From Candidatus Kapaibacterium sp. (lineage in GTDB: Bacteria; Bacteroidota; Ignavibacteria; Kapaibacteriales; WFXC01), in contig JALWJX010000082.1 of NCBI GenBank assembly GCA_026996895.1, positions 38,031-102,030 on the forward strand: DNA of 64,000 bases, read 5' to 3'. The first letter of the stretch is position 1. Every line of letters starts with the position of its first letter. Below the pieces are notes generated by a model. That model worked only from the letters and a program-made list of their open reading frames with translations. It had not been told where the DNA came from and searched no databases. Made by a program: the position numbers and the translations under genes. Shown one piece after another: positions 2,993 to 58,445 of the stretch.

Positions 2993-3700
2993 ATGGCATT
3001 AACAACCACCCAACTGGAACGGTGGCTCCACCCTCTGGTTGCCGCCGCCTTCCCGGAGCACAAAAACAGCGCCATTATGACCGCCCTGGAAACGGCTCTT
3101 GTCCGACATCAATGTTCCAACCTCGAGGATGCTTTCTTCAAAATCGACCTGCTCCTTCAATCAATCGCCACAGAGCTCAACGATACGCCGTGCTGTCAGT
3201 TAGACCTATTACAGTTTGAACTCACCGAGCGGGTTATCCGAACGACGCTCACCGCATACCTGCACCACCATTTTGCCCGATTTCCGGAAGTTGATCATCA
3301 GGATGCGGTACAGCAGGCGTTTCTCGCCCTGTATGCGGAAGCACCGGAAAACGTTCGCTCTTCGCCCCGGCGACTCTGGCGATATGCTTACACAGCCGCT
3401 CGAAACTTCCTGCTGCGCCAGGATCGGTACTATCACCGCTTTTTGCCTGAGCATCCTCACCTGCTGATATCACTCACCACGCCAGAGGATATTTGTGCAA
3501 GCCGGCTCGATTGGGAACGGATACAGGCCTTTGTCCAGCAGAGTTTTGGCACCCGGAGCTACCAACTCTTTCGCCTCTGGCTCGAAGGATGGACGTTGAA
3601 AGAGTTAGCGCAGCGCTTTCACATTGCAACGACCACACTCCACCGCCGATTGAAGGACGTCATCAATGCGGTTCGAGATCGATTTTCAAATCCGTCATAA
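2993..3700 (+). CDS. Hypothetical DNA-binding protein with a sigma-70 region-4-like C-terminal helix-turn-helix.
   Basis: The C-terminal segment WTLKELAQRFHIATTTLHRRLKDVINAVRDRF resembles the region 4.2 HTH of sigma factors. The rest of the protein is unassignable. Confidence 0.4.
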   Translation: MALTTTQLERWLHPLVAAAFPEHKNSAIMTALETALVRHQCSNLEDAFFKIDLLLQSIATELNDTPCCQLDLLQFELTERVIRTTLTAYLHHHFARFPEVDHQDAVQQAFLALYAEAPENVRSSPRRLWRYAYTAARNFLLRQDRYYHRFLPEHPHLLISLTTPEDICASRLDWERIQAFVQQSFGTRSYQLFRLWLEGWTLKELAQRFHIATTTLHRRLKDVINAVRDRFSNPS

Positions 3701-3744
3701 CGCAGAAGCAATGTGCCCTCACCCTCATCCTCTCCCGGAGGGAG

Positions 3745-3895
3745 AGGGAATGATGTTTGCCGACTAAAGTCGGCGCTCCCAGTGCCGGCGCTCCCGGTTT
3801 GCTGGAAGCGCACGCTTCAGCGTGTCTGGGAGCGCACGCTTCTGTGTGCATCGTCTTTGCCGACGAAACTCGGCGTTCCCCGGTATAGGACAGAC
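3745..3895. repeat. Cluster of REP-like hairpin repeats (unit TGCCGAC-N4-GTCGGCGCTCCC plus GGAAGCGCACGCTT modules) between convergent genes.
   Basis: The perfect short inverted repeat gccgacNNNNgtcggc followed by gctccc occurs twice here. It recurs at 20985-21300 in inverted orientation and at 58285-58445. Confidence 0.6.
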
Positions 3896-3896
3896 A

Positions 3897-5018
3897 CTAC
3901 CGCTTCAAGCGTCGATCTTTCCAGTAAACGTGGCGGGGAATGAGAAACAGCGGAAGCGAAACTTCCAGCAACTGAAAAAACAGCAGGATCGAGATCAGGC
4001 GTGGTCGCAGAATTTCCCACTGGCGCAGCGTACGCACTGCTGGCAATAGCAGCACCACATCGTAGACGCAGCGGGCTCCCAGCAGCACCATCGCCGCCAG
4101 TGGGGATCCCAGCAGCGCAGCGATCACGCCCAGCCAGTAGGCAACAGTCACCGTCATAAAGGCAACCGCTTTCCATCCCAGTGCTGTTCCCCCGTGCACC
4201 CAGCGATGGTGTTGTCGCAAGTATTCCCGGAAGGTTCGTAAAGGATACGTCAGCACGTAGGTCTGCGGTGACAGCATATATACGCACCGATATCCCTGCT
4301 GACGAACGGCTAAGAGCAGTGCTAAATCTTCGGTGAGCATTGAGTACGGGATCTGCTCCAATCCGCCAGTTTGCTGATACGCTGAATGGCGAATAGCCAG
4401 GTTGTTACCAAAGCATCCCAGCGGCACATTCCATCCCAGTCCAGCACGAGCCAGGGTGTGGTTATACAACCACTCCACCTGCTGCAACTGGTCGAACCAT
4501 CGATGGGCAACCATTGAGGAAAAGGAAGCGACACATCCCACTGCCGGTGATTGGAACGGCTGTACCATTGCTGCGATCCACGTCGCCGGGACAATACAAT
4601 CGGCATCGGTAAACAGCAAGATTTCTCCGGTAGCGTATCGAACCCCTGTTGCCAGTGCCCGCGCTTTCCCTACCAGTGGGCTATCGACAGACTGCGTACT
4701 GACCACCCGTAACCGCTGTCCGTATTGTTGCTGCAACTGGTGCAGAATCTCAGCCGTCCGATCCTCGGACTGGTCATCGACCACAATGACTTCAAAATGC
4801 GGATAATCATTCCGAAAAACTGAGTGCACACATTCCGCAATATGCTGCTCTTCGTTCCGGGCAGGAACAACGACCGACACCAGTGGCTGATACGCACCAC
4901 CGCTCTTTCTGCTAAACTGGCGCTCAAACTGCCGTGCTCTCCGATGCCCAAACCAGAAGAAACAGAACCGAATGGTCAGCAAACCAAAACCTATGAAGAA
5001 GAACCACTCCCAGCTCAT
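3897..5018 (-). CDS. Family 2 glycosyltransferase, membrane-integrated.
   Basis: It has the GT-A motifs VVVPARNEEQHIAECVHSV and TDADCIVP (DxD), with an N-terminal transmembrane helix and C-terminal transmembrane segments. Confidence 0.8.
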   Translation of the reverse strand: MSWEWFFFIGFGLLTIRFCFFWFGHRRARQFERQFSRKSGGAYQPLVSVVVPARNEEQHIAECVHSVFRNDYPHFEVIVVDDQSEDRTAEILHQLQQQYGQRLRVVSTQSVDSPLVGKARALATGVRYATGEILLFTDADCIVPATWIAAMVQPFQSPAVGCVASFSSMVAHRWFDQLQQVEWLYNHTLARAGLGWNVPLGCFGNNLAIRHSAYQQTGGLEQIPYSMLTEDLALLLAVRQQGYRCVYMLSPQTYVLTYPLRTFREYLRQHHRWVHGGTALGWKAVAFMTVTVAYWLGVIAALLGSPLAAMVLLGARCVYDVVLLLPAVRTLRQWEILRPRLISILLFFQLLEVSLPLFLIPRHVYWKDRRLKR

Positions 5019-20277: not shown

Positions 20278-20592
20278 ATGCCATTGAAAATCCAGTATTC
20301 CCGCAGCGCTCTTGAAAAGTTCTGCAAGCGATGGCACATTCAGGAACTTGCTCTTTTCGGCTCTTCACTGCGGGAGGACTTCCGACCTGACAGTGATGTG
20401 GATGTTCTGGTCACCTTTCAACCTGGGATCTTCTGGTCCTTTCGGGACTGGCTCCAGATGGTGCGTGAACTGGAAGCTATTTTTGGACGAACGGTAGACC
20501 TGGTGGAACGCCGGATGGTAGAGCAAAGCAAAAACTATATCCGCCGCAATCATATTCTCACTCACCTGGAGCAGGTCTATGTGGCGCGATGA
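20278..20592 (+). CDS. mntA: Nucleotidyltransferase antitoxin (MntA-like) of a HepT/MntA type VII toxin-antitoxin pair.
   Basis: It has the minimal nucleotidyltransferase motif [18 protein letters not shown] (GS-x9-DxD). Confidence 0.8.
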
Positions 20593-20920
20593 GGCATACC
20601 TTCTCGATATGCTGATTGCTGCCCGCGAAGCCAGAGATTTCAGTGAGGGACTCACCTGGAAGACATTTCAACAGAGCTCTCTCCACCAGCATGCTATTGC
20701 TAAGGCATTGGAGAATATCGGCGAGGCAGCACGAAAAGTGTCGAACGAAATGAAAGCTGCTCATCCCGAAATTCCGTGGAGAGAGATTGTCGCATTGCGC
20801 CACCGTATTGCCCACGATTATTTCCACCTCGACTTAGTGCGGATATGGCAAATTGTGCAGGAAGACGTACCCACCCTCATTCGGCTCCTTGAACCGCTAA
20901 TACCTCCAGAGGAGCATTAA
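20579..20920 (+). CDS. hepT: HEPN-domain (DUF86) toxin HepT.
   Basis: The Rx4HxY HEPN motif is present in LRHRIAHDY. The gene overlaps mntA by 14 nt, as is typical for this pair. Confidence 0.8.
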
Positions 20921-20984
20921 CGACCGTTGGGGGAATTGTTTCAACCGCAATGCACTTTGAAGCGTGCATCCAGTAGCATCCTAC

Positions 20985-21300
20985 CGGGGGCGCCGGATTC
21001 AGCCGGCATGTTTCTGCACACTAAAGTATGCGCTCCAACCGGGAGCGCCGACTTCCGTCGGCAAAAAATAGAAGGATACACTAACGTAAATGTGTAGTAG
21101 GGGCGACCGGCCGGTCGCCCCTACGGGTGTGGATGATGTGACCAGCGGGGTTGCGCCGACTGGGAGCGCCGGCTTTAGCCGGCAAAGAATGCACCCGGAA
21201 GTGTGCGCTCCCAGTAAACCGGGAACGCCGACTTTCGCTGGCATATCTGGAACACCGACTTCCCGAAAGATAACTACAGATGTAGGCACTGCCGATTTGC
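20985..21300. repeat. REP-like hairpin repeat cluster (inverted orientation relative to 3745-3895) between convergent genes.
   Basis: It contains gggagcgccgac-ttcc-gtcggc, gggagcgccggc-ttta-gccggc, the ggggcgaccggccggtcgcccc palindrome, and gcgctccc modules. Confidence 0.6.
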
Positions 21301-21325
21301 CCCGGCAAAACAGCGAATTGACACT

Positions 21326-22387
21326 TTAATAATCCGACGAAAGGCGGAAGCGGAGGATACGGTCGTTGCCCGTATCGGCAATGTAGAGGATGCCGTTGTA
21401 GAATGCTACCCCCCTGGGCTGGCGAAACTGCCGCAGTCCATCGCCACTGCCACCAAAGGAGTAGGAAAACTCCTGACCGAAAAAGTTGAACTTGTACAGC
21501 GAGTCCTTGCCCGCATCGATGACGTAAAGATTGCCGTACCGATCATACGTCACATCTTCGGGCTGCGAAAAGCGGTTGACACGCAACAGATCGGTGTTGT
21601 CCGCAGGCATAAACTTCGGACGCCAGTCTGCAATTTCACCGCCCATATACCGGAGCCACTGAACCTTGAACTGCATATCCGGTCCAATCTGGGTAAAGGC
21701 AAAGTCGTACGTATTCCGCCCGGTCACCGATATACCGCTGGGTTGCTGCAGCGAGTTAAGCGCGGTTCCGACAGGGCGAAGAACAGGGACGGGAGAAATC
21801 AGTTGATCATCCGCTCCGATCTGAATCACGGCATCATCGGGATCGACCGGCGACACGTTCGATGGTCCAGTGCGGGTCACCAGATACGAGTTATCCGGTA
21901 GCACCGTAATCCCCGTAAAACGGCGAGCCGGTTTCTGCAACTCTGTGTAAACGACCCGAACTGGTGCTTTTGCAATCTGATGTGCTACTGCACGCAACTC
22001 AATGCGGTAGATCGCCCCAACGGTTACAGGCTTTCCATTCAGCACTGTATCCAGCTCTCCGCACACCAGCAAATCGAATCGCCCATCCTGCGCCAGCGCG
22101 ACTGGCCGTTTAATTCCCGTGGCTGTGCCCAACCATCGACCGGCTAAATCCAGCATCACCACGCGATCGTTATCCGTATCCGCCACGTAGATAAAAGGTT
22201 CACGTCCAACCAGCACATCCGATGGACGGCGAAAACCGGTCCACGGTGGACGCACCGGCGTATACACCGTATCATTGACGGTTTGCGTTGTGTCGATCGG
22301 CGCTGTCGGTGGCACCGGCTTTTCATGGCAGTGCGTCAACAGCAGGATCGTAACGCCAAGCAGTCCCCAGAAGCGGAGCATCTTCAC
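21326..22387 (-). CDS. NHL-repeat lipoprotein.
   Basis: It has a lipoprotein signal (MKMLRFWGLLGVTILLLTHC). NHL-like beta-propeller blades end in YVADTDNDRVVMLD, LYVIDAGKDSLYKF and ILYIADTGNDRILRF. Confidence 0.65.
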   Translation of the reverse strand: MKMLRFWGLLGVTILLLTHCHEKPVPPTAPIDTTQTVNDTVYTPVRPPWTGFRRPSDVLVGREPFIYVADTDNDRVVMLDLAGRWLGTATGIKRPVALAQDGRFDLLVCGELDTVLNGKPVTVGAIYRIELRAVAHQIAKAPVRVVYTELQKPARRFTGITVLPDNSYLVTRTGPSNVSPVDPDDAVIQIGADDQLISPVPVLRPVGTALNSLQQPSGISVTGRNTYDFAFTQIGPDMQFKVQWLRYMGGEIADWRPKFMPADNTDLLRVNRFSQPEDVTYDRYGNLYVIDAGKDSLYKFNFFGQEFSYSFGGSGDGLRQFRQPRGVAFYNGILYIADTGNDRILRFRLSSDY

Positions 22388-31291: not shown

Positions 31292-31415
31292 CTCCGGTGT
31301 ATCATAGCGGTGTTACGGGGGCTGTCAAACGCTATCTGGCACTTTGTGCGCAACCTACGCACACTGCACTGAAAATGGCAAAATATTTTGGGTAATAAAT
31401 CAAGGAAGTCTGGTG

Positions 31416-34400
31416 ATGAAACACAGAGTCCAATTGATACTTCTGATCTGGTTGATTTTTTCACCCTTACTCTGGTCTCAGGGCAATCCCAGCGTTGGAA
31501 TCGGCACTTTTACCCCTGATCCTTCTGCAATCTTAGAGCTTCGCTCCACATCGAAGGGGTTCTTGGTGCCACGAATGACAACGGCACAACGGAATGCGAT
31601 CAGCTCTCCTGCTCTCTGGCTGCTGATCTTCAACACTGATACCCAGCAGTTTGAATACTGGAACGGCACGGTATGGATCCCGCTGATTTCTATACAAAAC
31701 GTCAGCAACAGTGCCTGGTCTCTCAGTGGCAACACGCTCACCGGGAGCGAGTTTCTTGGATCTGTGAATCTCCAGCCGGTAGTGTTCAAGACCAATGGTG
31801 CGGAGCGAATGCGGATTTCCACGACCGGCAATGTTGGTATCGGCATCATTACGCCGACCAATACCCTGCACGTTAAAGCAACCAGCAATCCCCTGCGACT
31901 GGAAGGCTTGCAGTCTCTGAGCAACGCTTCTACAATCTTAGCGGTCGATGCCAACGGCGTTGTCTACACCACCAGTGCCAGTTCCTTTACGGCATCGAAC
32001 GCCTGGTCGCTGACAGGAAATGCCGGCACTGATCCAAACACCGACTTTCTGGGTACGACGGACAATCAACCGCTGGTGATTCGGACGAACAACACCGAGC
32101 GGATGCGGATTCTGGCATCCGGTTTGGTCGGGATCGGAACCAATACCCCAACGAACACGTTGCACGTCAAAGCAACGAGCAACCCACTGCGGTTGGAAGG
32201 CGTGCAAACTACTGCCAGCGCTTCGACCCTGTTAGCCATCGACGCCAATGGGGTCGTGGTCTCGACCAGTGCCTCGACTTTTGTTGCCAACAACGCTTGG
32301 GCACTCAGCGGCAACACGCTCACTGGCAGTGAGTTCCTCGGATCAGTCAATGCCCAGCCGGTAGTGATCCGAACGAACAACACCGAGGCGATGCGGATCG
32401 ATGCCAATCAACGGGTGGGAATTGGAACGAACGCACCGAGCCACACCCTGCACGTTGCTGCGCCCAGCAATCCGTTGCGACTGGAAGGGTTGCAGTCATT
32501 GAGCAATGCGGGAACGATCTTAGCCGTGGATGCCAACGGTGTTGTCTACACCACCAGTGCCAGTGCCTTTGCTGCTGCTAACGCCTGGTCGCTGACAGGA
32601 AATGCCGGCACTGATCCGACAACGAATTTCCTGGGCACTACTGACAATCAACCGTTGGTGATCAGAGTCAATAATCTGCAAGCTGTGCGAATTGAACCAA
32701 CGAACCAAACGATCAATATCATCGTGGGAACTTCCAACATCGTCACTGCGGGCGTCTATGGAGCTGTTATTAGCGGTGGTGGATATGGAAACAATGAAAA
32801 TAAAGTCACAGACAACTTCAGTACAGTAAGCGGAGGAGTTTCAAATCAAGCTGGGAACAATAACGCTGATGTAACCGATGCACAGTACGCCACGGTCGGA
32901 GGAGGCTACGGAAATACTGCCAGCGGTTTAGGCAGCACTATTAGCGGTGGATGGAACAACACTGCCAGTGCTGCCCGGAGTACGATTGGTGGAGGATATA
33001 ACAACAATGCCATCGGATGGGGAACCACTATTGGGGGAGGTGCTGATAATATTGCCAGCAGCGAGTATAGCACAGTCAGTGGTGGGAAAAACAACAATGC
33101 CAACGTTGCTTATAGTACCATTGGAGGAGGTCTGCAAAATACTGCCAGTGGTCAATATAGTACCATTGGAGGAGGTCTGCAAAATACTGCCAGTGGTCAA
33201 TATAGTACCATTGGAGGAGGTCTGCAAAATACTGCCAGTGGTCAATATAGTACCATTGGAGGAGGCAGTGCTAATATAACAGGTGGCGATTGGAGCACTG
33301 TGAGCGGAGGATGGACAAACATTGCCAGCGGAGGTGGCAGCGTTGTTGGTGGTGGACGGGGCAATACAGCAGGTGGAGCCTATAGTACCATACCTGGAGG
33401 TCTCAACAACTCTGCCCTGGGTGATTATACCTATGCAGGAGGAAGAGCGATGTATTTGAGTACCTCGGCCAACCATACCTTTGTCTGGGGCTATGCAACG
33501 GCAACTTCTGCTATCACCGCCTCCGACGCCTTCCTCATCGGTCCCTACGGGAACAACTACCGCGTTGGGATCAATGTCGTTAATCCTACTGCTGCTCTGC
33601 ATGTCACCGCTGGAACGTGGACGTATCCATTGCGACTGGAAGGATTGCAGCCACTGAGCAACGCCGGAACGATCTTAGCGGTCGATGCCAACGGCGTTGT
33701 CTACACCACCAGTGCCAGTGCTTTTGCTGCTGCCAATGCCTGGACGCTGACAGGGAATGCCGGGACTGATCCAGCAATTAACTTCTTGGGTACAACGGAC
33801 AATCAACCACTGGTGATTCGCACCAACAACCTTGAACGGATGCGGATCTCCACGACCGGCAATGTCGGCATTGGCATCAGCACGCCGACCAACACGTTGC
33901 ACGTCAAAGCAACGAGCAACCCACTGCGGTTGGAAGGCGTGCAAACTACTGCCAGTGCTTCGACCCTGTTAGCCATCGACGCCAATGGGGTCGTGGTCTC
34001 GACCAGTGCCTCGACTTTTGTTGCCAACAACGCCTGGGCACTCAGCGGCAACACGCTCACTGGCAGTGAGTTCCTCGGATCAGTCAATGCCCAGCCGGTG
34101 GTGTTCAAGACCAGTGGAATTGAAGCGATGCGGATCGACGTTGATCAGCAGGTTGGGATCGGCACCAGCACACCAACGAACACCTTGCACGTTAAAGCGA
34201 CCATCGATCCGTTACGACTGGAAGGGTTGCAAACCACCAGTGCTACTGCGACGGTCCTGGTTTCGGACGCTGCGGGGATCGTGTACACCACCAGCGCTAG
34301 CGCTCTTGCTGCTGCCAATGCCTGGTCGCTCACTGGCAACGCTGGAACCAACCCAGCGAGCAACTTCTTAGGCACCACGGACAATCAGCCACTGATTATC

Positions 34401-37400
34401 AAAGTTAATAACGCACAGGCATTGCGCATAGAGCCAACTGTCGGATCCCCAAATATTCTGGGCGGCTACGGATTGAACAGTATCTCCAGTGGCGTAGTTG
34501 GAGCTGTTATCAGCGGTGGGGGTAGCACTGGATTATCGAACAAAGTCACCGACAATTATGGTGTTATCGGAGGCGGCGTGGGAAATCAAGTGGGAAACAA
34601 TAGCGGAGGAGCTATCGATGCTCAGTATGCAACCGTAGGTGGCGGCTATGGAAACACTGCCAGCAGTACCTCGAGCACCGTGGGTGGCGGTGAACTTAAC
34701 ATTGCCAGTGGACTCCGGAGCACTGTTGGCGGCGGTTATAGCAACACTGCCAGTGGCGATAGGGGTACTGTGGGAGGAGGTTACGGGAATACCGCCAGCG
34801 GCCCGGGCAGCACCGTTGCTGGTGGCGAGAATAATACTGCCAGTGGTGGCGTGAGTGCTGTGGGTGGCGGTGACAACAATATTGCCAGTGGTGATGTGAG
34901 CACTGTGGGTGGCGGTTATAGCAACATTGCCAGCGGTGCAGGAAGTACTGTGGGCGGCGGTACAAACAACACTGCTAGTGGCAATACCAGTACCGTATCA
35001 GGTGGAGCTTTCAATACTGCAGCAGGTGACGTTTCCTGGGCTGGAGGAGCATACATGTATCTGTCGCCCACCGCCGATCACACCTTTGTCTGGGGCTATG
35101 CAACGGCAACTTCTGCTATCACCGCCTCCGACGCCTTCCTCATCGGTCCCTACGGGAACAACTACCGCGTTGGGATCAATGTCGTTAATCCTACTGCTGC
35201 TCTGCATGTCACCGCTGGAACGTGGACATATCCATTGCGATTAGAAGGCTTGCAACCACTGAGCAATGCGGGGACAATCTTAGCGGTTGATGCCAACGGT
35301 GTTGTGTACACCACCAGTGCCAGTGCGTTTGCTGCTGCTAACGCCTGGGCACTGACAGGGAATGCCGGAACCGATCCAGCAATCAACTTCTTGGGTACTA
35401 CGGATAATCAACCGTTGGTGATTCGCATTAACAACCTTGAGCGGATGCGGATTTCCACCATCGGCAACGTCGGCATTGGCATCAGCACGCCGACCAACAC
35501 CTTGCACGTCAAAGCGACCAGTGATCCGTTGCGGTTAGAGGGCGTGCAGAGCAGTGCTAATGCGACGACCCTGTTAGCCATCGACGCCAGTGGAGTGGTA
35601 GTATCGACCAGCGCCTCGACCTTTGTTGCCAACAACGCTTGGGCACTCAGCGGCAACACCCTCACTGGCAGTGAGTTCCTCGGATCGGTCAATGCGCAGC
35701 CGGTGGTGATCCGGACCAACAACACCGAGGCGATGCGGATCGATGCCAACCAACGGGTGGGGATTGGAACCAATGCACCGAGCCACACCTTACACGTTGC
35801 TGCGCCCAGCAACCCGCTGCGGTTGGAAGGCTTGCAACCTCTGAGCAATGCGGGGACAATCTTAGCCATTGATGCCAATGGCGTGGTGTACACGACCAGT
35901 GCAACATCCTTCACCGCTGCCAATGCCTGGTCGCTCACAGGAAACGCCGGGACTGATCCAAACACCGACTTTCTGGGCACGACGGACAACCAACCGCTGG
36001 TGATTCGGACGAACAACACCGAACGGATGCGGATTCTGGCATCCGGACTGGTCGGCATCGGAACCAGCACACCGAGTCATACGTTGCACGTCAAAGCAAC
36101 GAGTGACCCGTTGCGGTTAGAGGGCGTGCAGAGCAGTGCTAATGCGACGACGCTGTTAGCCATCGATGTCAATGGGGTCGTGGTCTCGACCAGTGCCTCG
36201 ACTTTTGTTGCCAACAACGCTTGGGCACTCAGCGGCAACACGCTCACTGGCAGTGAGTTCCTCGGATCAGTCAATGCCCAGCCGGTAGTGATCCGGACGA
36301 ACAACACTGAGGCGATGCGGATCGATGCCAGTCAACGGGTGGGGATTGGAACGAACGCACCGAGCCACACCCTGCACGTTGCTGCGCCCAGCAATCCATT
36401 GCGTCTGGAAGGCTTGCAGTCATTGAGCAATGCCGGAACCATCTTAGCGGTCGATGCCAACGGCGTTGTCTACACCACCAGTGCAACATCCTTCACCGCT
36501 GCGAATGCCTGGGCACTCAGCGGCAACACCCTTACTGGCAGTGAGTTCCTCGGATCGCTCAATGCCCAGCCCGTGGTGTTCAAGACTAATGGCGTAGAAC
36601 GAATGCGAATTACTGCTGCTGGTGACATTGGCATTGGAACCACAACTCCAGGTGCCAAAGTTGACATCCGGGCGAATAGTGCCAGCGATCTGCTGGTTCG
36701 CATCTGGAACGCTGGTGGCAATGCAAAATTCCGCATCGTTGGTCAGGGTGGCAGTGCACAACCACGGTTTCAGTATACGGTCAACGCTGAATGGCTCTCC
36801 GAGATTGCCGGCAACACCAGTACAGGTTTGGAATTCCGAGTTCGTGCTCCGTCGGATCCAAATGACGAAGCAACTCTGGCAACCCGAACCCGGATGGTGG
36901 TTGGGAGGACGGGCAATGTCGGCATTGGAACGCTATCGCCAACGAATCGACTCCACGTCGTTGCTCCCAGCAACCCACTGCGACTGGAAGGGTTGCAGTC
37001 ATTGAGCAATGCGGGAACGATCTTAGCGGTCGATGCCAACGGCGTTGTCTACACCACCAGTGCAACATCCTTCACCGCTGCGAATGCCTGGGCACTGAGT
37101 GGGAATGCGGGAACCGATCCAAACACCGACTTTCTGGGTACGACGGATAATCAACCGCTGGTGATTCGGACGAACAACACCGAACGGATGCGGATTCTGG
37201 CATCCGGACTGGTCGGGATTGGAACCAATACCCCAACGAACACGTTGCACGTCAAAGCAACGAGCAACCCACTGCGGTTGGAAGGCGTGCAGACTACTGC
37301 CAGCGCTTCGACCCTGTTAGCCATCGATGTCAATGGGGTCGTGGTCTCGACCAGTGCCTCGACTTTTGTTGCCAACAACGCTTGGGCACTCAGCGGCAAC

Positions 37401-39587
37401 ACGCTCACTGGCAGTGAGTTCCTCGGATCAGTCAATGCCCAGCCGGTAGTGATCCGGACGAACAACACTGAGGCGATGCGGATCGATGCCAATCAACGGG
37501 TGGGGATTGGAACGAACGCACCGAGCCACACCCTGCACGTTGCTGCGCCCAGCAATCCGTTGCGTCTGGAAGGGTTGCAGTCATTGAGCAATGCCGGAAC
37601 GATCTTGGCGGTTGATGCTAACGGTGTGGTCTACACCACCAGCGCCAGTTCCTTTACAGCATCGAACGCCTGGTCGCTGACAGGAAACGCCGGGACTGAT
37701 CCGACAACGAATTTCCTGGGAACTACCGACAATCAACCACTGGTGATTCGCACCAACAACCTTGAACGGATGCGGATCTCCACGACCGGCAATGTCGGCA
37801 TTGGCATCAGCACGCCGACCAACACGTTGCACGTCAAAGCAACGAGCAACCCACTGCGGTTGGAAGGCGTGCAAACTACTGCCAGTGCTTCGACCCTGTT
37901 AGCCATCGACGCCAATGGGGTCGTGGTCTCGACCAGTGCCTCGACTTTTGTTGCCAACAACGCTTGGGCACTCAGCGGCAACACGCTCACTGGAAGTGAA
38001 TTTCTCGGATCGGTCAATGCGCAGCCGGTAGTGATCCGAACGAACAACACTGAGGCGATGCGGATCGATGCCAACCAACGGGTGGGGATTGGAACCAATG
38101 CACCGAGCCACACCTTACACGTTGCTGCGCCCAGCAACCCGCTGCGGTTGGAAGGTTTACAACCACTGAGCAACGCCGGAACGATCTTGGCGGTTGATGC
38201 TAACGGTGTGGTCTACACCACCAGCGCCAGTTCCTTTACAGCATCGAACGCCTGGTCGCTGACAGGAAACGCCGGGACTGATCCGACAACGAATTTCCTG
38301 GGAACTACTGACAATCAACCGCTGGTGATTCGGACCAACAATGCGGAACGGATGCGAGTGTTAGCCTCTGGCTACGTTGGTGTTGGGACGACCTCTCCAA
38401 CTGCCCGGTTAATGGCAGTCGAAGATGCACCCGGACAGGCAGTGATGCGAATCCAGAATCTGGATGCCGCTGGTCTTTCCGGTATTGAATTTCTGACCCA
38501 CACCTCTGCTGTAATGGGGTACGTTGGGCTGGAACCTGGCGGCGGTGCTCTGCGCATCTGGAGTCAGTCAAATATGATCCGGTTCTATACCAACGGCGTA
38601 GAACGGGTGCGAATCACGACCACCGGAAACGTTGGAATCGGATCCTTAGATCCGCAATATCGGCTGCACATTGAAGGCGATGGAATGATGTACGCCTCTG
38701 GAGAATTCGGCAAGGGCGCAACGATGCCAGAAGGAGCAAAGACGGCGTTCATCTGGAATCCGCGCAAAGCGGCATTGCGAGCAGGATCGGTGACAGCAGA
38801 TCAGTGGAACGATGCTCAGGTCGGCGCTTACACCGTCGCTTTTGGTAAAAACACGATTGCCAGTGGCGCATTTTCCGTTGCGGTTGGAGAAAACACGGTT
38901 GCTGAAGGAGCGGCTGCGTGGGTCGGCGGTCGGAATTTGCATCTGCTCCCGGATGCAACGGGTACGTTTGCCTGGGGCAATACCGAACACTCCACATCGA
39001 TCGAAACCAGTTATGCGTTCCTGATTGGTCCTGGAGATACGCCCTACCGTGTCGGGATCAACACGGCAACACCGACGTACGCACTGGAGTTGCCCAATGA
39101 CTCGCGAGCGAACGTGGGACAGGCACGAGCAAACGCGTGGCTGACATACGCAGATCCACGGATGTGGAGTGCAACTGAACCCATTGGCGCAACCAGTGAG
39201 CTGTTGTCACAACTCCAACCGCTTCGATACCGCGATGTTGCAGGCAAGAGCGGCTTCAGCTTTGATCCCCAGCAACTGGCAGCGGTTCTCCCGGAAGCGG
39301 TGGGGGTTCCAGCAGACAGCTCGCAGCAGTGGAGTATTAACTATGCAGCGCTCATTCCTGTGCTGGTCGCAATGCTCCAGGAACAGCAGCAGCAAATCCA
39401 GCAATTGCGGCAACAGAATCTGGCATTGCAACAGCAAGTTGCCGAAACACAGCAACTCCGGAAGCGACTGGCAAAAATGGAGCAGCAACTGTCAACGCTG
39501 GAACAGTTACAGCAGCAGGTTCGGTACCTGATCCAGCTCCAGCGTGAAGCACGCCCCGTTCCAACAGCAAGCAACGGCGGAAAATAA
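31416..39587 (+). CDS. Giant secreted repeat protein (about 2,720 aa). It has a signal peptide, about twenty ~95-aa modules, two YadA-head-like Gly-rich 14-mer blocks, a C-terminal tail-fiber intramolecular-chaperone (peptidase S74)-like domain and a Gln-rich coiled coil.
   Basis: It has a signal peptide (MKHRVQLILLIWLIFSPLLWSQ) after an aggaag ribosome-binding site. The module consensus is NAWSLTGNAGTDP..FLGTTDNQPLVIRTNN.ERMRI...VGIGT.TPT.TLHVKATSNPLRLEGLQ....LAVDANGVVYTTSAS. The STIGGGLQNTASGQYSTIGGG repeats resemble the YadA head. The C-terminus (LQPLRYRDVAGKSGFSFDPQQLAAVLPEAVGV....QWSINYAALIPVLVAMLQEQQQQIQQL) resembles the S74 chaperone domain. Confidence 0.8.
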   Translation: MKHRVQLILLIWLIFSPLLWSQGNPSVGIGTFTPDPSAILELRSTSKGFLVPRMTTAQRNAISSPALWLLIFNTDTQQFEYWNGTVWIPLISIQNVSNSAWSLSGNTLTGSEFLGSVNLQPVVFKTNGAERMRISTTGNVGIGIITPTNTLHVKATSNPLRLEGLQSLSNASTILAVDANGVVYTTSASSFTASNAWSLTGNAGTDPNTDFLGTTDNQPLVIRTNNTERMRILASGLVGIGTNTPTNTLHVKATSNPLRLEGVQTTASASTLLAIDANGVVVSTSASTFVANNAWALSGNTLTGSEFLGSVNAQPVVIRTNNTEAMRIDANQRVGIGTNAPSHTLHVAAPSNPLRLEGLQSLSNAGTILAVDANGVVYTTSASAFAAANAWSLTGNAGTDPTTNFLGTTDNQPLVIRVNNLQAVRIEPTNQTINIIVGTSNIVTAGVYGAVISGGGYGNNENKVTDNFSTVSGGVSNQAGNNNADVTDAQYATVGGGYGNTASGLGSTISGGWNNTASAARSTIGGGYNNNAIGWGTTIGGGADNIASSEYSTVSGGKNNNANVAYSTIGGGLQNTASGQYSTIGGGLQNTASGQYSTIGGGLQNTASGQYSTIGGGSANITGGDWSTVSGGWTNIASGGGSVVGGGRGNTAGGAYSTIPGGLNNSALGDYTYAGGRAMYLSTSANHTFVWGYATATSAITASDAFLIGPYGNNYRVGINVVNPTAALHVTAGTWTYPLRLEGLQPLSNAGTILAVDANGVVYTTSASAFAAANAWTLTGNAGTDPAINFLGTTDNQPLVIRTNNLERMRISTTGNVGIGISTPTNTLHVKATSNPLRLEGVQTTASASTLLAIDANGVVVSTSASTFVANNAWALSGNTLTGSEFLGSVNAQPVVFKTSGIEAMRIDVDQQVGIGTSTPTNTLHVKATIDPLRLEGLQTTSATATVLVSDAAGIVYTTSASALAAANAWSLTGNAGTNPASNFLGTTDNQPLIIKVNNAQALRIEPTVGSPNILGGYGLNSISSGVVGAVISGGGSTGLSNKVTDNYGVIGGGVGNQVGNNSGGAIDAQYATVGGGYGNTASSTSSTVGGGELNIASGLRSTVGGGYSNTASGDRGTVGGGYGNTASGPGSTVAGGENNTASGGVSAVGGGDNNIASGDVSTVGGGYSNIASGAGSTVGGGTNNTASGNTSTVSGGAFNTAAGDVSWAGGAYMYLSPTADHTFVWGYATATSAITASDAFLIGPYGNNYRVGINVVNPTAALHVTAGTWTYPLRLEGLQPLSNAGTILAVDANGVVYTTSASAFAAANAWALTGNAGTDPAINFLGTTDNQPLVIRINNLERMRISTIGNVGIGISTPTNTLHVKATSDPLRLEGVQSSANATTLLAIDASGVVVSTSASTFVANNAWALSGNTLTGSEFLGSVNAQPVVIRTNNTEAMRIDANQRVGIGTNAPSHTLHVAAPSNPLRLEGLQPLSNAGTILAIDANGVVYTTSATSFTAANAWSLTGNAGTDPNTDFLGTTDNQPLVIRTNNTERMRILASGLVGIGTSTPSHTLHVKATSDPLRLEGVQSSANATTLLAIDVNGVVVSTSASTFVANNAWALSGNTLTGSEFLGSVNAQPVVIRTNNTEAMRIDASQRVGIGTNAPSHTLHVAAPSNPLRLEGLQSLSNAGTILAVDANGVVYTTSATSFTAANAWALSGNTLTGSEFLGSLNAQPVVFKTNGVERMRITAAGDIGIGTTTPGAKVDIRANSASDLLVRIWNAGGNAKFRIVGQGGSAQPRFQYTVNAEWLSEIAGNTSTGLEFRVRAPSDPNDEATLATRTRMVVGRTGNVGIGTLSPTNRLHVVAPSNPLRLEGLQSLSNAGTILAVDANGVVYTTSATSFTAANAWALSGNAGTDPNTDFLGTTDNQPLVIRTNNTERMRILASGLVGIGTNTPTNTLHVKATSNPLRLEGVQTTASASTLLAIDVNGVVVSTSASTFVANNAWALSGNTLTGSEFLGSVNAQPVVIRTNNTEAMRIDANQRVGIGTNAPSHTLHVAAPSNPLRLEGLQSLSNAGTILAVDANGVVYTTSASSFTASNAWSLTGNAGTDPTTNFLGTTDNQPLVIRTNNLERMRISTTGNVGIGISTPTNTLHVKATSNPLRLEGVQTTASASTLLAIDANGVVVSTSASTFVANNAWALSGNTLTGSEFLGSVNAQPVVIRTNNTEAMRIDANQRVGIGTNAPSHTLHVAAPSNPLRLEGLQPLSNAGTILAVDANGVVYTTSASSFTASNAWSLTGNAGTDPTTNFLGTTDNQPLVIRTNNAERMRVLASGYVGVGTTSPTARLMAVEDAPGQAVMRIQNLDAAGLSGIEFLTHTSAVMGYVGLEPGGGALRIWSQSNMIRFYTNGVERVRITTTGNVGIGSLDPQYRLHIEGDGMMYASGEFGKGATMPEGAKTAFIWNPRKAALRAGSVTADQWNDAQVGAYTVAFGKNTIASGAFSVAVGENTVAEGAAAWVGGRNLHLLPDATGTFAWGNTEHSTSIETSYAFLIGPGDTPYRVGINTATPTYALELPNDSRANVGQARANAWLTYADPRMWSATEPIGATSELLSQLQPLRYRDVAGKSGFSFDPQQLAAVLPEAVGVPADSSQQWSINYAALIPVLVAMLQEQQQQIQQLRQQNLALQQQVAETQQLRKRLAKMEQQLSTLEQLQQQVRYLIQLQREARPVPTASNGGK
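31700..38350 (+). repeat. Intragenic tandem and interspersed DNA repeats (285-bp modules, many more than 90% identical over more than 300 bp) inside the giant gene.
   Basis: Near-identical stretches occur at about 32170-32480, 37260-37570 and 37850-38150, and at about 31830-32000, 33820-33990 and 37780-37950. The same spurious antisense ORFs (MHAFQPQWVARCFDVQRV...) appear three times. Confidence 0.8.
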
Positions 39588-40012
39588 ATAAAAGGAAATA
39601 GACATTACCAGCGCTGCGCCTCCCTGGTTCAAAAGCTCTACTCTGCGCAGCAGTGCGTATGCCAGTAAATATTCGTCTGGCGGTTCCAGCAGGGATGCTC
39701 TGAGCTAACATTACCGATACAAACTAAGCAAAGAAGCCGCTTTTATACATCTGCTATTCGCACCGAACGCTCATTACACTCGACAAGAACAAAAGCGGCT
39801 TCTCTACGCACCGCATTAACACAGCGAATTAAATTAGACATAGAGAGGCACAACCCATAGGTTATCCCCGTGCATTCCGCTGCCAGCAGCGACACAGCAT
39901 ATTGCCATTGCGTACTTCATTCTCACAAACAGCGTGTCTTGTAGAAATAGGTCTTTACCCGGGCAAAAATACAGGGGGTCAGGGATTGTCATCCTCCTTT
40001 GGGCAGAGGAAA

Positions 40013-40043
40013 GCAGGATGCTCTGCTGAGCAAAGCATCCTGC
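40013..40043. terminator. Perfect 10-bp stem-loop (gcaggatgct-N11-agcatcctgc) just downstream of the minus-strand outer-membrane-protein gene.
   Basis: The stem is a perfect inverted repeat. A weak T-tract (TTTCC) follows on the minus strand. Confidence 0.3.
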
Positions 40044-40056
40044 AAAGTGGCTATTC

Positions 40057-45789: not shown

Positions 45790-48700
45790 TTACTTCACCC
45801 CGATCAGCCGGGTTACTGTCCACACACCGTCGGAGCAGCGGAGGAAAAAGGTGCCGCTATGCCCAAGCTGAGCACGGTGGAGAACCAATGTACTGTGCCA
45901 GCTTCCGGTGGTGGGATCATACTCAAATGCAGACAACGGCGGAACAAGGGTAAGGATCAACTGTCCAAGAGCAGAGTAAATTTGAATCCGAAAGTTCGAA
46001 GGTGACCGAACTCCCGCTAACTGAATCATTGCTTGATCTGTCAGTGGATTAGGCGCAATCGTAACGCTTAAACTCCCGGTAGTAGGGTTGAGCAGTTGCG
46101 GCGCCCCTTCTTTGTAGATACGAAGATGAAACGTCCCCGGTTGATAGTGCTGCGGCAAAACATAGCTGAAACCATCCGGAAAGAGCCAGCGCACGCTGTC
46201 GATCCAGACGGGCGAATACTCCATATCACCCAATCCCACTAGCAAGGGAAGCGATACAAGGACATCAGCAGACTGGTCACTATAAGACTGCGGAATAGCA
46301 ACCGTATGCCAGCCCGTCTGCGGCAAAGTGCGCAACGCAGGATCTAAAGGGGTAAGAACCGTAGCATTCCATCGGGCAAAAATGACATATTGCTGCGGCT
46401 GCAATTGTTGCAGTATCGGCTCCAAAACCCCTCGAATCTCCAACCATACTGTATCGCCCGGTGCTCCTTCGAACGGCACAATACTCCAGCGGGCAACGGC
46501 TGTTCGCTGCGCCTGTCCAATCACGGGAAATGTGACTATGAAAGGACATAGTCCCAACAAACGCACCTGCAGGGTATCGGTATGGAGTGTATCCAGAGCA
46601 AAAAATTCAACTGCCAGTTCCAGCGCCTCACCCGGTCTCAGTGTATCAGGCAATAACGGCTTCATCCACACAATTCGGAACAGGGTAGCAGCCTGAAAAT
46701 GTGCCTGTTGCACCCACAGCGGCGTTGTCCCGCGATTCACAATGCGAATGGTATCGATGCGGCGAGTTGCGACTGGAACAGCAGGCAATGACACCGCTGT
46801 CGGCGCTGCAACTGAATCAAAGTGGCGGAAACCGGTTACGGCAACACCCGTGCGCTCTCCGCAGGGCAAGGACGTCAGCCATAGCGTATCGCTCCACTCA
46901 CCCTTCGGCGGTATACCCCGGATGTGGAATGCTACGGAATCAAAGGGCAAGAGCGTCGAAGCAGCTAAATCACCGTCCATCCACGCAGGAAGTTGACCCA
47001 CCGTAAGGAACAACGTATCCGCTGTACGGTTGCTTATCCACAATGTGGTATCAAGCTGGGGACGGCACACGCGAAGAGAATCCAGTTGGAGTTCGGGAAC
47101 ACCAAGGGACGGGACACGCGCGGCTGCCAGGAGCGGAATTTTCATCGTATCAACGCAGCCTCGAACGGAATATGCCACCGACAGAGCAGCCCGAAACTCC
47201 CCATCCAAAGCAGGCTGGCAAACGATGCGGGCAATAAACGTTTCCTGAGGCGCTAAAAATGGAGGCAGAGAAGTTGATAGCACAAACGGCGCTGGTACCG
47301 TCCATTGATGAATCCACAACGTATCGGTCGGCGACCGATTCTGTAACTGTACAGCCGTATCAAGCGGAAATCGGCAGAGAGTGTGGACACCGTAATCCAC
47401 CACTGCGAGATCCGTTGTAAAAGGCTGTAATTTGTTTCCGCTCACTGCGATCGGAATGGCATATTGACACGGCGTATACCGCAATTTGAGGGTATCGGCA
47501 AAAACGCCCTGTTGGTAGGGAGCAAATCGAATCGTTACGGTTGTCGCTGCACCGGGTGGTAGCAGGATCGGCAAAGGGGTCTGAATGGCAAAAGCATCGG
47601 AAGCATCGGCGGCAACAATGGTATGGGCAACCGTGTCAGGATTGACAATCTGGATGCTCTGGGTCGTCTGTGGAGCACACTCACTTAGCGTGCCAAACTC
47701 TATCACTGAAGGGAACGTTTGCAAAGGAACTTCGGGCAAAAGAAACACAGGGATCGCTGGAGTCACGATGGTATCGCATTCTCCGATTAGCAAAGCACGA
47801 TACCACAGGGTATCCCCCGGATCGCCGCTTGTGGTTGTCCGAAGTGTTGGTGAGGCTTGATAGTACACCGGTTGCCACGGCCGATCCTGACGATCCCGCC
47901 ATTGCCACCGATATGCTAAGGCATCTTCCGCCCGGACAAACAGGGTTATTTCTTCTCCAGGACAGACCGTGGGAGAAGTCGACAGTGTAATCACTTTCGG
48001 CGACGCCGCCTTCCGCACGGAAGCGCCGCGAGTTGCTGTCGAACACTCCTGATAGAAAAATATCGCTCGAAACAGCGCCGATGGTGACACCGTATCTGCC
48101 CGGCGAATCACCAGAAATTCTTCTGTTGTCCCCGGCAACAATTGCCACGTATACCCTCCATCATCACTCCGCTGCCACCGAACAGAGTCGTAAGGATAGG
48201 CAGAAGCATAGAAAACCGCAGAGTCATTGGGACATACGCTCTGGGTCACAGGATGCACCGCAATTTGTGGCGCTGGTCGCAACCGAAGCCGCGCTGGCTC
48301 ACTTACCGCGACGCCACAAACATTACTCAAGCGCAACCGAAACAGGGCATTCTGCTGTGATTGTCCAACGGTTGGCAAAAATAACTGGTATCGGCGCTCG
48401 TACGGCAGCGGCGTCCAGGACTTCCCTCCGTCCGTACTCCGCTCCCACACTCGCTCCGGCAGCGGATAGCCTCCGCCTTCTGCTTCAAACAGTACATCGC
48501 TGCCCGGACAGACCGTCACATCCTCTGGATGCCGGCTAATCTGCGGTGGCTGATACCACACGATCGCTCCTTCCGAACGGTCATAGAGGACAGATCCATC
48601 CGTAGAGGTGGCAACAACAGCAAACAGCGTGTCTTCTGTTGACCGCTCTGGCAATATCCACTGAAAAGTGGTATCACGTGCCGCCACCACACCTATCGGA

Positions 48701-52141: not shown

Positions 52142-55100
52142 ATGATGGCACAATTGTGGAAACCGCGCCTAAATACAGTATTATTGACGATCGCTCTCTG
52201 GACTGTCTGTATCATTGCTGGCTGGTCTCAGACAGTTTTCCGCGAAGGAGGCATCCCCCGGATGGTCATTGCAACTACCGGCAATGTAGGGATTGGTACA
52301 ACCACTCCTTCTATCACTGCATTGCTGGAACTCAGCTCAACCTCCGCGGGGATCCTCATTCCCCGACTCACTCAGGCAGAGCGAGATGCAATCAACTCCC
52401 CTGCGTTGTGGTTATTGATCTTCAACACCACCGCCCAGCAGTTTGAATACTGGAACGGTTCGCAGTGGATTCCTTTAATTTCTGCTACTTCTCTCACTTC
52501 CAGCAGTTGGTCACTGACGGGGAACGCTGGAACCGACCCAGCGACCAATTTTCTGGGTACCACGGATAACCAGCCGTTGGTGATTCGGACGAACAACACC
52601 GAAGTAATGCGGGTTACCACTACTGGCAACGTTGGGATTGGCACCAGTGCTCCCGGCTATCGCCTTCACCTTGCTGCTGATGGGATGATCTATGCGGAAG
52701 GAACTTTTGGTGCGGGAGCAACCGTTCCGCCGGGAGCGAAGACAGCGTTTATCTGGAACCCGCGCAAAGCGGCGATTCGAGCTGGACAGGTAACGGGCAA
52801 TCAGTGGGATGATGCGAATGTTGGCAACTACTCGGTTGCTTTTGGGTACGCTAACACTGCCAGTGGTGCTGGGAGCACCGTTGGTGGTGGGCAGGGCAAC
52901 GTTGCCAGCGGTCAGAATAGCACCCTCGGTGGTGGCTACCTGAACACCGCCAGCGGCAACTGGAGCACTGTCGGCGGCGGCTATCAGAACACCGCCAGTG
53001 GCGTTACCAGTACCATCGGTGGTGGTCTTTCCAACACTGCCAGCGATTATTATAGCACCGTCGGCGGCGGTCAACAAAACATCGCCAGCGGCACTGGCAG
53101 CACCGTCAGCGGCGGCGTCCAGAACACTGCCAGCGGGCACTATAGCACTGTTAGCGGTGGCTTTTACAACACCGCCAGCGGTTACTCCAGTATTGTCAGC
53201 GGGGGTCGGAACAATACTGCTGGCGGTGATTACTCCTGGGCAGGTGGCGGCTATATGTACCTCAGCGCTGCTGCCGATCGCACCTTCGTCTGGGGGTATG
53301 CCACGGTGACAACGGCGATTACTGCTTCGGATGCCTTTCTGATTGGTCCGTATGGCAACAGTTACCGTGTTGGGATCAACGTATTGAACCCTGCCGCGGC
53401 ACTGCATGTCAACGTTGGAAGCTGGTCGTACCCGCTACGGGTGGAAGGATTACCGACAACGAGCGCCAGCAGTACGGTGCTGGTCTCAGATGCCGCAGGG
53501 ATCGTGTACACCACCAGTGCCAGTGCACTGGCGGCATCCAATGCCTGGTCGCTGACAGGAAATGCCGGGACCGATCCAACAACGAATTTCCTGGGAACCA
53601 TTGACAACCGACCCCTGGTGATTCGCACGAACAACACCGAAGTAATGCGGGTTACCACTACTGGCAACGTTGGCGTTGGGACAGTGACACCAACAGTGAA
53701 GTTACACGTCAAGGCTGTCAGCAATCCGCTACGGCTGGAAGGGTTGCAGCCTTTGAGCAACGCCAGCACGATTTTAGCCGTCGATGGTAGCGGCGTGGTC
53801 TACACCACCAGTGCCAGTAGCCTGGCATCTGCCAGCGCGTGGAACATTACGGGGAACAGTGGTACAGATCCAGCAACGAACTTCTTAGGAACGACCGATA
53901 ATCAGCCGCTGGTGATTCGGACCAACAATGTAGAGCGGATGCGGATCACTGTTAACGGCTATGTTGGCATTGGAACAGATACTCCTGGGGAAATGCTGGA
54001 TATTGTCGGCAACTCCGATGCTGATCTGAATCTCACTTCCTTTGGTTCTTCCATTAGCACTATTCATATGCGTCGAGCCTTAGGAAGCAAATCTTCTCCA
54101 GCACCGGTAACCAACAATAACAACTTAGGTGGTGTCGAAGGCTTAGGGTACGACGGAACACAATACGTCCGGGCTGCGGGTATTGATTTTCAGGTTGATG
54201 GACCGGTCACCGCCAATGTAGTACCAGGACGGATTGTATTTCGAGTCCGACGACAAGGAAGTACCAGCTGGGGCGGAGAGGAGCAGGTGTTTATCAAAAA
54301 TGATGGAAAGGTAGGAATTCGGGTTGCCCATCCAACACATCGGCTGCACGTTGTAGCAGAAACTGGGGAAGATCCGCTCCGCCTGGAGGGTCTGCGAACG
54401 ACAACAGCGACGGTGGATTTGCTGGTTGCCACAGCCAGCGGCAGTGTGCATACCAGCAACGTACAGAGTTTAGTGGGCACTGTCGCCTGGTTGCTCACTG
54501 GAAATGCGGGGACAGATCCGGCGACGAATTTCTTAGGAACGACCGATAATCAGCCGTTGATCATCAAAGTAAACAACACGCAGGCATTGCGCATTGATCC
54601 CAACAGTGTATCGCCCAACATTATAGGCGGGTACAGCGGCAATAGCATTGCCAGCAGCGTTGTTGGGGCAATCATTAGCGGTGGTGGGAAGACAGCGGGA
54701 ACCAATCAGGTCACTGATAATTATGGCGTAGTCGGCGGCGGCGCTGGCAATCGAGCTGGCAATAATAGCGGGACAACCACTGATGCAGCGTATGCAACTG
54801 TGGGGGGAGGCTACGTTAATATAGCCAGTGGACAATACAGTATGGTTGGAGGGGGACAGAGCAACGTTGCCAGCGGGAACCATACTGTAGTTGCAGGGGG
54901 ATATAACAATCATGCCATTGGCAGTTACACTGCCGTTGGAGGGGGCATTAATAACAGTGCAAATGGCAATTATGGAATTGTCAGTGGAGGGGAACTCAAC
55001 AATGCCAGTGGTAGTTATAGCACCATTAGTGGGGGAAAGAGCAACATCGCCAGTGGTCAATACAGTGTTATAGGAGGCGGAATAAATAATGTTGCCAGCA

Positions 55101-58284: not shown

Positions 58285-58445
58285 AGGAAAGCGCTTCTTA
58301 GGATGCATTCTCTGCCGACGAAAGTCGGCGCTCCCGGTGGGGTTCACTGGAAACGCACGCTTTAGTGGGCGTTCACTGGGAACGCACCCTTGAGGGTGCA
58401 CTCTCTTTGCCGGCTAAAGTCGGCGCTCCCGGTAGAGTGCTTGTT
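58285..58445. repeat. REP-like hairpin repeat cluster between the convergent fiber-2 and TauE genes.
   Basis: tgccgacgaaagtcggcgctcccgg and tgccggctaaagtcggcgctcccgg flank ggaaacgcacgcttt and gggaacgcaccctt modules. Confidence 0.6.

Follow-up and report, generated by a model that had tools for sequence, protein, structure and literature searches.

What are the short GC-rich palindromes that recur between converging genes in the window (the whole 64-kb stretch of DNA analysed here), and how do they come to be clustered there? The sequence-only reading had taken them for a REP/BIME-like family of hairpin modules, clustered at three sites and restricted to convergent intergenic regions. We find that they are a real, structured, multi-copy and intergenic family, whose content turns over within flanks that are 92-95% identical.

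Palindromic modules lie in three clusters of the window

The module GCCGAC-N4-GTCGGCGCTCCC occurs seven times in the window, against 0.11 occurrences expected, and solely inside the three clusters. The pattern GCCGACNNNNGTCGGCGCTCCC, with up to 3 mismatches, likewise gives 7 matches against 0.11 expected, a number reached by none of 100 shuffles; these matches lie at 3759 and 3859 on the plus strand (cluster 1), at 21041, 21162 and 21221 on the minus strand (cluster 2), and at 58314 and 58409 on the plus strand (cluster 3). Matches to GGAAGCGCACGCTT with up to 2 mismatches (4 in the window, 0.62 expected) all fall within the same three clusters. A strict definition of the unit (the head GGGAGC, allowing 1 mismatch, then GC, a stem of 6 bp and a loop of 4 nt) yields 13 units in the window, all of them inside the clusters and none elsewhere; several decayed or partial units are also seen at the cluster edges. 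The three sites of clustering named in the sequence-only reading are thus confirmed, as are the orientation of cluster 2, which is opposite to that of clusters 1 and 3, and its GGGGCGACCGGCCGGTCGCCCC palindrome at 21100-21121.

Each cluster lies between convergently transcribed genes, as had been claimed, and five of the six flanking ORFs have a Pfam match. Cluster 1 separates an ORF with weak similarity to sigma-70 (2993-3700, +) from a GT2 glycosyltransferase (3897-5018, -), cluster 2 separates a HepT toxin (20579-20920, +), with its MNT partner upstream, from an NHL-repeat protein (21326-22387, -), and cluster 3 separates a 2034-aa repeat protein (52142-58246, +), for which the C-terminal part scanned gave no Pfam match, from TauE (58447-59202, -). 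The MNT (nucleotidyltransferase) and HepT (HEPN RNase) genes form a toxin-antitoxin pair (20278-20920, +) that ends 65 nt before cluster 2. We note that the 2034-aa ORF and a second giant ORF of 2747 aa (31344-39587, +) contain nested DNA repeats with periods of ~582, 294 and 45 nt; since both have UspA1-type adhesin repeat matches, they are probably surface adhesins. A further large ORF of 1669 aa (45790-50799, -) had no Pfam match in the part scanned.

Cluster 2 is identical base for base in an independent ENA assembly, and its first ~225 bases are identical in a Logan assembly, up to the end of the contig. Because both assemblies (reached via the HepT gene, and from the same strain as the window) agree with the window, cluster 2 is not an assembly artefact. 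The Logan contig (L120, 907 nt) corresponds to window 20900-21123 and ends inside the palindrome called C1 below; short-read assemblies appear to be broken by the cluster repeats.

A single tagged hairpin with two types of stem

The sequence-only reading had listed GCCGAC and GCACGC modules as separate motifs. They are instead two stem variants of a single unit of ~29 nt, which consists of a conserved unpaired head, (a)CTGG-GA-GC, a 6-bp GC-rich stem that starts with GC and ends with C, a TTNN loop of 4 nt (in ~80% of units TTTA or TTCA), the second half of the stem and a short tail. Units of type A have the stem GCCGRC (GCCGAC or GCCGGC) and an A-rich tail, with the consensus aCtGGGAGCGCCGaCTTtaGtCGGCAaa (156 units), and units of type B have the stem GCACNC (GCACGC, GCACAC or GCACCC) and the tail ATT.TCT, with the consensus aCtGGGAgCGCAC.CTTcAG.GTGCAtt (123 units). 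With its 6-bp stem and 4-nt loop the unit falls within the 20-40 nt of a REP palindrome. Read as codons, GCC GAC GAA AGT CGG CGC TCC CGG directly yields the peptide ADESRRSR, and this accounts for the spurious ORF translations that had been reported across the modules.

Cluster 1 opens at its left edge with a module that we call D (3716-3750, +), in which CCCTCACCC is followed by the sequence CCTCTCCC-GGA-GGGAGAGG, which folds as an 8-bp hairpin. Next come a perfect A unit on the minus strand (3758-3783; CTGGGAGC GCCGAC TTTA GTCGGC A), with a head-only partial A unit, CCGGGAGCGCCGGC (3784-3797, -), joined to its 5' side; two B units on the plus strand (3802-3826, CTGGAAGC GCACGC TTCA GCGTGT; 3826-3850, CTGGGAGC GCACGC TTCT GTGTGC A); and an A unit with one stem mismatch (3858-3884, -; GGGAAC GCCGAG TTTC GTCGGC A).

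In cluster 2, what appears from the sequence to be a degenerate B unit, CTGGATGCACGCTTCAAAGTGCA, with a head short by 2 nt (20951-20973, -), is followed by an A unit (20986-21007, +; GGGGGC GCCGGA TTCA GCCGGC), a B unit (21016-21037, -; TGGAGC GCATAC TTTA GTGTGC) and a perfect A unit (21041-21062, +; GGGAGC GCCGAC TTCC GTCGGC). The middle of the cluster holds C1 (21097-21124, with no strand assigned), a GTAG-tagged perfect palindrome of the form GTAGGGGCGACC-GGCC-GGTCGCCCCTAC, and a putative degenerate REP of C2 type, GTGACCAGCGGGGTTGCGCC (21138-21157, -), recognized by comparison with intact copies at loci L037, L069, L072 and L103 and cut off by the A unit that follows (21162-21183, +; GGGAGC GCCGGC TTTA GCCGGC). 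This A unit forms a tail-to-tail doublet with the next B unit (21191-21212, -; GGGAGC GCACAC TTCC GGGTGC). Beyond the doublet lie an A unit (21221-21242, +; GGGAAC GCCGAC TTTC GCTGGC), a probable decayed A unit that has lost its 3' half-stem, CTGGAACACCGACTTCCCGAAAG (21247-21269, +), and, at the right edge, a GTAG-led hairpin, GTAGGCAC-TGCCG-ATTTGCCC-CGGCA (21282-21307), that may be another decayed unit.

Cluster 3 has four units: a perfect A unit (58313-58339, -; GGGAGC GCCGAC TTTC GTCGGC A), a B unit with an insertion in its 3' half-stem (58349-58372, +; GGAAAC GCACGC TTTA GTGGGCGT), a second B unit (58378-58399, +; GGGAAC GCACCC TTGA GGGTGC) and an A unit (58409-58430, -; GGGAGC GCCGAC TTTA GCCGGC).

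Units of the two types alternate in orientation and their stems covary

Between adjacent units (those no more than 120 nt apart), an A and a B always point in opposite directions (124 of 124 pairs), and two units of the same type point the same way in 65 of 66 cases. Spacing is tight in tail-to-tail A-B pairs (mostly 6-10 nt) and looser in head-to-head pairs, and B-B tandems mostly lie 7 nt apart. A tail-to-tail doublet is an imperfect palindrome of 55-60 nt. That of cluster 2 (21162-21212) has an 11-bp outer stem made by the two heads, with a folding z score of -5.75, and in cluster 3 the second B unit and the A unit beside it form two hairpins enclosed by an outer stem of 7 bp. Overall, clusters and doublets fold far better than shuffled sequences, with z scores of -3.3 to -5.75. 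Inverted REP pairs of alternating type, the hallmark of BIMEs and REPINs, are therefore present, with outer stems of 7-11 bp.

Watson-Crick alternatives are seen at three places in the stem: C-G and A-T at position 3, G-C and C-G at position 4, and A-T, G-C and C-G at position 5. Among 145 distinct units, 95.2% of stem cells are paired, compared with 74.3% in shuffles, a percentage that is inflated by the preselection of units for at least 4 Watson-Crick pairs, as the compensatory changes are not; in 196 stem cells both partners have changed, and none of 500 shuffles reaches the observed values. Pairing drops to 18-33% when the partner columns are slid. Selection for an RNA hairpin on one strand would be expected to permit G.U mismatches and not A.C. 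Non-Watson-Crick stem cells of the two kinds are, however, equally common (G.T, n = 50; A.C, n = 54), and this symmetry argues that there is no RNA-strand bias and fits either a palindrome that acts at the DNA level or the use of both strands.

The family is abundant in two related genomes

An exact-pattern scan of one genome per species, in chunks of up to 8 kb, matched at least 111 chunks. Exact A units were found in at least 29 chunks of the metagenome-assembled genome (MAG) WFXC01, "Candidatus Kapaibacterium sp. S141_32_esom", and in at least 21 chunks of the MAG JALWUI01, "Ca. Kapaibacterium sp. M2_metabat2_scaf2bin.264", which makes at least 50 separate chunks for the two relatives taken together. 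These chunks hold ~150 and ~105 units, respectively, a density of ~7 per 10 kb in the matched Kapaibacterium chunks. Together, the window and the related chunks (~430 kb) contain ~280 units (A, 156; B, 123), and the motif is thus far from limited to the three sites of the window; the high copy number expected of a REP family is evident from the 13 window units and from both MAGs. Most of the other chunks listed gave single matches in GC-rich genomes, viral contigs scanned for the pattern gave no matches, the window contains no tRNAs, and a literature search with the raw sequence strings returned only unrelated primer matches.

The first 6540 nt of the window are 94-95% identical to contig WFXC01000030.1, which indicates that the window comes from a close relative of the MAG WFXC01. 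We also note a contig of 1506 nt (L025; JALWWX010000119.1) that is binned as Aquificales and consists almost entirely of A, B and C units, including 10 A/B units. Since the JALWUI Kapaibacterium MAG was produced in the same study, this is probably a mis-binned repeat contig.

Clusters are mosaics that include classical GTAG repeats

The clusters are mosaics in which GTAG-tagged REPs and a CCCTCTCCC/GGGAGAGGG hairpin lie beside the A and B units. Three GTAG-tagged elements are distinguished: C1, which has the form given above (GTAGGGGCGACCGGCCGGTCGCCCCTAC) and folds at -15.2 kcal/mol (z -5.1), C2 (GTAGGGGCGACCCGGCTGGTCGCCC) and C3 (GTAGGGGCGAAGCAGTGCTTCGCCC), the last two often as inverted doublets with the GTAG tags outside. 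Such REPs occur in the same spacers as A and B units in the window (21097-21124), at L029, L037, L069, L072 and L103, and elsewhere. The window stretch 21088-21160, which includes C1, has matches at a dozen related loci, and several loci have a copy, 82-85% identical, of the ~190-nt composite in cluster 2 (A, C1, degenerate C2, A, B). Module D is present in 12 copies in the WFXC chunks and 5 in the JALWUI chunks, adjoining A, B or C units. GTAG repeats are the REP class tied to RAYTs. C1-C3 make up a second REP family, of the classical kind, in a lineage to which a survey from 2013 assigned no GTAG repeats (PMC3733652).

Cluster content turns over between close relatives

Two pairs of orthologous loci differ in unit number within conserved flanks, as is characteristic of BIMEs. 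At the ortholog of cluster 1 in WFXC01000030, the flanks (94-95% identical) and the D hairpin are common to both sequences, and the WFXC01000030 copy differs in its A and B units and has, besides, an additional D hairpin and a GTAG palindrome. In the second pair, locus L028 of WFXC01 and contig 150 of JALWUI01, the flanks are ~92% identical. Here a 30-nt indel corresponds to exactly one A unit plus spacer, a 15-nt insertion corresponds to one extra head, a multi-unit block of ~190 nt is tandemly duplicated, and C and D modules stand in place of A and B units.

Extra heads are not limited to this pair. Head-only stutters of the form aCTGGGAGCGCC(N2-6)aCTGGGAGCGCCGAC... are found in at least 22 places directly 5' of full A units, including the partial unit at window 3784-3797. 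They are also seen at L028 6736-6758 and L069 421-443, and sometimes two or three stand in a row. All units, like all extra heads, begin with CT. The stutters may be the footprint of cut-and-rejoin events or of slippage, and, by analogy with TnpAREP-type enzymes, the CT starts might reflect cutting at C|T. None of the ortholog comparisons captured a clean empty site marking a transposition event, and slippage or repeat recombination could therefore yield part of the turnover without a transposase.

Clusters favour spacers downstream of genes but are not restricted to convergent ones

In the window, clusters occupy 3 of ~5 convergent junctions and 0 of ~33 other junctions. The restriction to convergent regions that had been claimed does not hold in the wider sample. 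Considering multi-unit clusters only, with the clusters masked and with crude ORF calls, we could assign 40 of 60 clusters in the relatives to spacers, the rest lying at chunk edges or in ambiguous settings. Of the convergent spacers 15 of 40 held a cluster, compared with 18 of 166 co-directional and 7 of 38 divergent ones, an approximately fourfold enrichment of convergent over other spacers (odds ratio 4.3, p = 3e-4). Even so, 25 of the 40 assigned clusters lie in co-directional or divergent spacers. For three co-directional clusters both flanking genes have Pfam support: one lies between genes for an MFS transporter and an OmpA/VWA protein, one between GcpE and isocitrate/isopropylmalate dehydrogenase, and one between an M14 peptidase and a short-chain dehydrogenase. 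Conversely, the 469-nt convergent spacer at window 39588-40056 contains no A, B, C or D unit, and thus not all roomy convergent spacers are occupied. The niche is intergenic (the three window clusters and the 40 assigned clusters all lie between ORFs, as befits extragenic palindromes) and preferably after gene 3' ends, not convergent only.

A preference for gene 3' ends raises the possibility that the hairpins are selected by the host as RNA 3'-end elements, serving convergent genes as terminators or as barriers to 3'-exonucleases. Consistent with this idea, gene 3' ends precede all three window clusters, convergent spacers show the enrichment described above, a T-rich tail (ATyyTTT) follows B hairpins, several of which pass a simple terminator-like scan, and the clusters fold as RNA with z scores of -3.3 to -4.4. 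Several observations nonetheless make such a role unlikely as the explanation of the family. G.U-compatible mismatches are no commoner than A.C and so favour neither strand; A units lack a T tract on the strand on which they are read; of 18 co-directional spacers, just 5 have the terminator-like strand of B facing the upstream gene, a proportion that is not significant in either direction; seven clusters lie in divergent spacers, on the promoter side; and the variation in unit number at orthologous sites would be odd for a tuned terminator. As a side effect, a terminator or stabiliser role is possible.

The mobility of whole elements could also be invoked. If the units were MITEs, or the ends of insertion sequences, moved by a DDE or other non-Y1 transposase, they would be expected to be multi-copy, intergenic and variable between relatives, as they are, and the ~190-nt composite (A, C1, C2, A, B) found at several loci with 82-85% identity might be taken for such an element. 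We regard this explanation as improbable. The ortholog comparisons reveal no terminal inverted repeats around an element of fixed length and no target-site duplications, and cluster length and composition vary freely, which is not how a MITE behaves; the entity that is repeated is the 29-nt tagged hairpin, whose variable number and order are the behaviour of REPs and BIMEs, and no transposase gene stands beside any cluster among the flanking genes examined. It is hardly credible that each cluster is instead a structured non-coding RNA gene or some other defined element, for example a riboswitch or a CRISPR-like array. In favour of this reading are a strong predicted structure and sub-threshold Rfam matches to Sr006 and to whalefall-1 (on module D, 20.4 bits where the gathering score is 37; E = 0.0037). 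Against it, no Rfam family reaches its gathering score for the clusters, the sub-threshold matches fall on the D and C modules and none on A or B, and units differ in number, order and spacing between clusters and between orthologs, are spaced irregularly without unique spacers and use both orientations. On anatomy, we reject the MITE, ncRNA-gene and CRISPR-like readings.

A proposed mechanism for the assembly of the clusters

Tagged and covarying palindromes, present in many copies, intergenic, assembled in alternating clusters and changing rapidly in content, bear out the proposal that the family is REP/BIME-like. We consider it probable, at roughly 70%, that the clusters are BIME-like mosaics of non-coding REP-type palindromes that are reshuffled as single-stranded DNA by a putative RAYT.

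Under this model, units would fold as hairpins in single-stranded DNA, and neighbouring A and B units would give REPIN-like doublets able to form an outer stem from their two heads. Head and hairpin would be recognised by a RAYT (a REP-associated tyrosine transposase, of the HUH Y1 kind) whose gene would lie elsewhere in the genome, and this enzyme would cut and rejoin DNA at nearby sites, such that arrays are generated and reshuffled. Units would persist mainly where insertion is harmless, and it is presumably because insertions are harmless there that spacers after 3' ends, above all those of convergent pairs, are enriched. Effects on transcript 3' ends would be a by-product.

We did not find the gene for such an enzyme in the sequence at hand. 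A six-frame search for the RAYT motif ([ND]H.H ... Y..N[PQ], and looser forms) gave no match in the ~430 kb, which are a small part of each genome, and phmmer with the RayT of E. coli (rayT of NC_000913.3) gave none in the window, the 111 genome chunks and 6 metagenome contigs. The six contigs are short ones matched in a metagenome scan with an over-specific pattern, and none carries a transposase. With no RAYT in the ~430 kb searched, RAYT-driven mobility is something that we infer. Also counting against assignment to a RAYT/REP system is the head of the A and B units, which is not the canonical GTAG or CGTC tag.

Comparison with known REP systems

The closest parallels in arrangement are the REPs and BIMEs of E. 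coli (Y, Z1, Z2), which, like the Kapaibacterium units, are short tagged palindromes with at least two stem types that alternate in orientation, and which, like the Kapaibacterium clusters, are intergenic mosaics with linker motifs in which unit number varies between close relatives. The grammar of A and B units matches the behaviour of Y and Z REPs in E. coli BIMEs (PMC6006769, PMC3333891), and BIME number per locus varies between E. coli strains (PMC3333891). In single-stranded DNA, the cleavage site of E. coli TnpAREP is C|T, close to a functional REP (PMC3333891), and A and B units likewise begin with CT. The Kapaibacterium family differs in that its head is CTGG-GA and not GTAG, in that its stem, a plain helix of 6 bp, lacks the conserved mismatch needed by TnpAREP, and in that its host belongs to the Bacteroidota/Chlorobi group, with no cognate RAYT in the ~430 kb searched.

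In layout, the units resemble the REPs and REPINs of Pseudomonas (GTAG-1, and SBW25 GI GTGGGAGGGGGCTTGC), with which they have in common a tag, an unpaired GA, a GC-rich stem, a loop starting with TT and a short tail. The order of tag, unpaired dinucleotide and stem in GTAG-1 and GTAG-2 REPs (PMC3733652) is matched by CTGG-GA-stem, and the head of the P. fluorescens SBW25 GI REP, GTGGGAGG (PMC3116915), parallels the CTGG-GA head. As with Pseudomonas REPINs, inverted A-B doublets can fold into a longer hairpin. The first tag base of A and B units, however, is C and not G, and the partners of an A-B doublet carry unlike stems, so that the doublet folds with an internal bubble or as two hairpins with an outer stem.

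Compared with the GTAG and CGTC superfamilies (Di Nocera et al. 2013), C1, C2 and C3 are textbook GTAG REPs, inverted doublets included, whereas A and B units carry neither terminal tag (CTGG or CCGG precedes GA) and would fall among the 'untagged' or degenerate-tag classes of that survey. For Bacteroidetes and Chlorobi the survey lists CGTC repeats alone, its GTAG repeats being those of Proteobacteria, Cyanobacteria, Chloroflexi and the PVC group (PMC3733652).

Near-identical units of type A (GGGAGCGCCGGC-TTYA-GCCGGCA) are present in two Haloferula genomes (Verrucomicrobiota) and in one Vicinamibacteria MAG (Acidobacteriota), at L021 2238-2298, L024 3204-3263, L060, L014, L040 and L109. Some of these form inverted doublets of one stem type, and no B type was seen among them. 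The loop is TTTA or TTCA in 10 of 12 (the exceptions are TGCA and TTCC), although it had been left free in the search pattern. On sequence similarity, these units hint at a wider family that spans phyla. Given that near-identical units recur in Haloferula and Vicinamibacteria despite the free loop, A and B units might even constitute a REP superfamily of their own, with a CYGG-GA-GC head and two obligatorily inverted stems, served by an uncharacterised RAYT clade that crosses phyla; we advance this suggestion tentatively and think it less likely to be true than false.

Implications

To our knowledge, REP, BIME and REPIN systems have been worked out almost entirely in Proteobacteria. REPs and BIMEs are a known kind of element, and the A/B family opens no new mechanism. 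Its novelty lies in a grammar of two inverted types combined with a non-GTAG head, in a phylum-level group in which such elements have hardly been described. There is also a practical side, in that the clusters break short-read assemblies, yield spurious ORFs (...ADESRRSR...) and can cause mis-binning, so that the quality of MAGs gains from annotating them. The grammar itself, unusually clean with its two inverted stem types and its head stutters that start with CT, could serve to test models of array building by RAYTs, and the A/B family would extend the REP/BIME class to the uncultured Kapaibacterium lineage.
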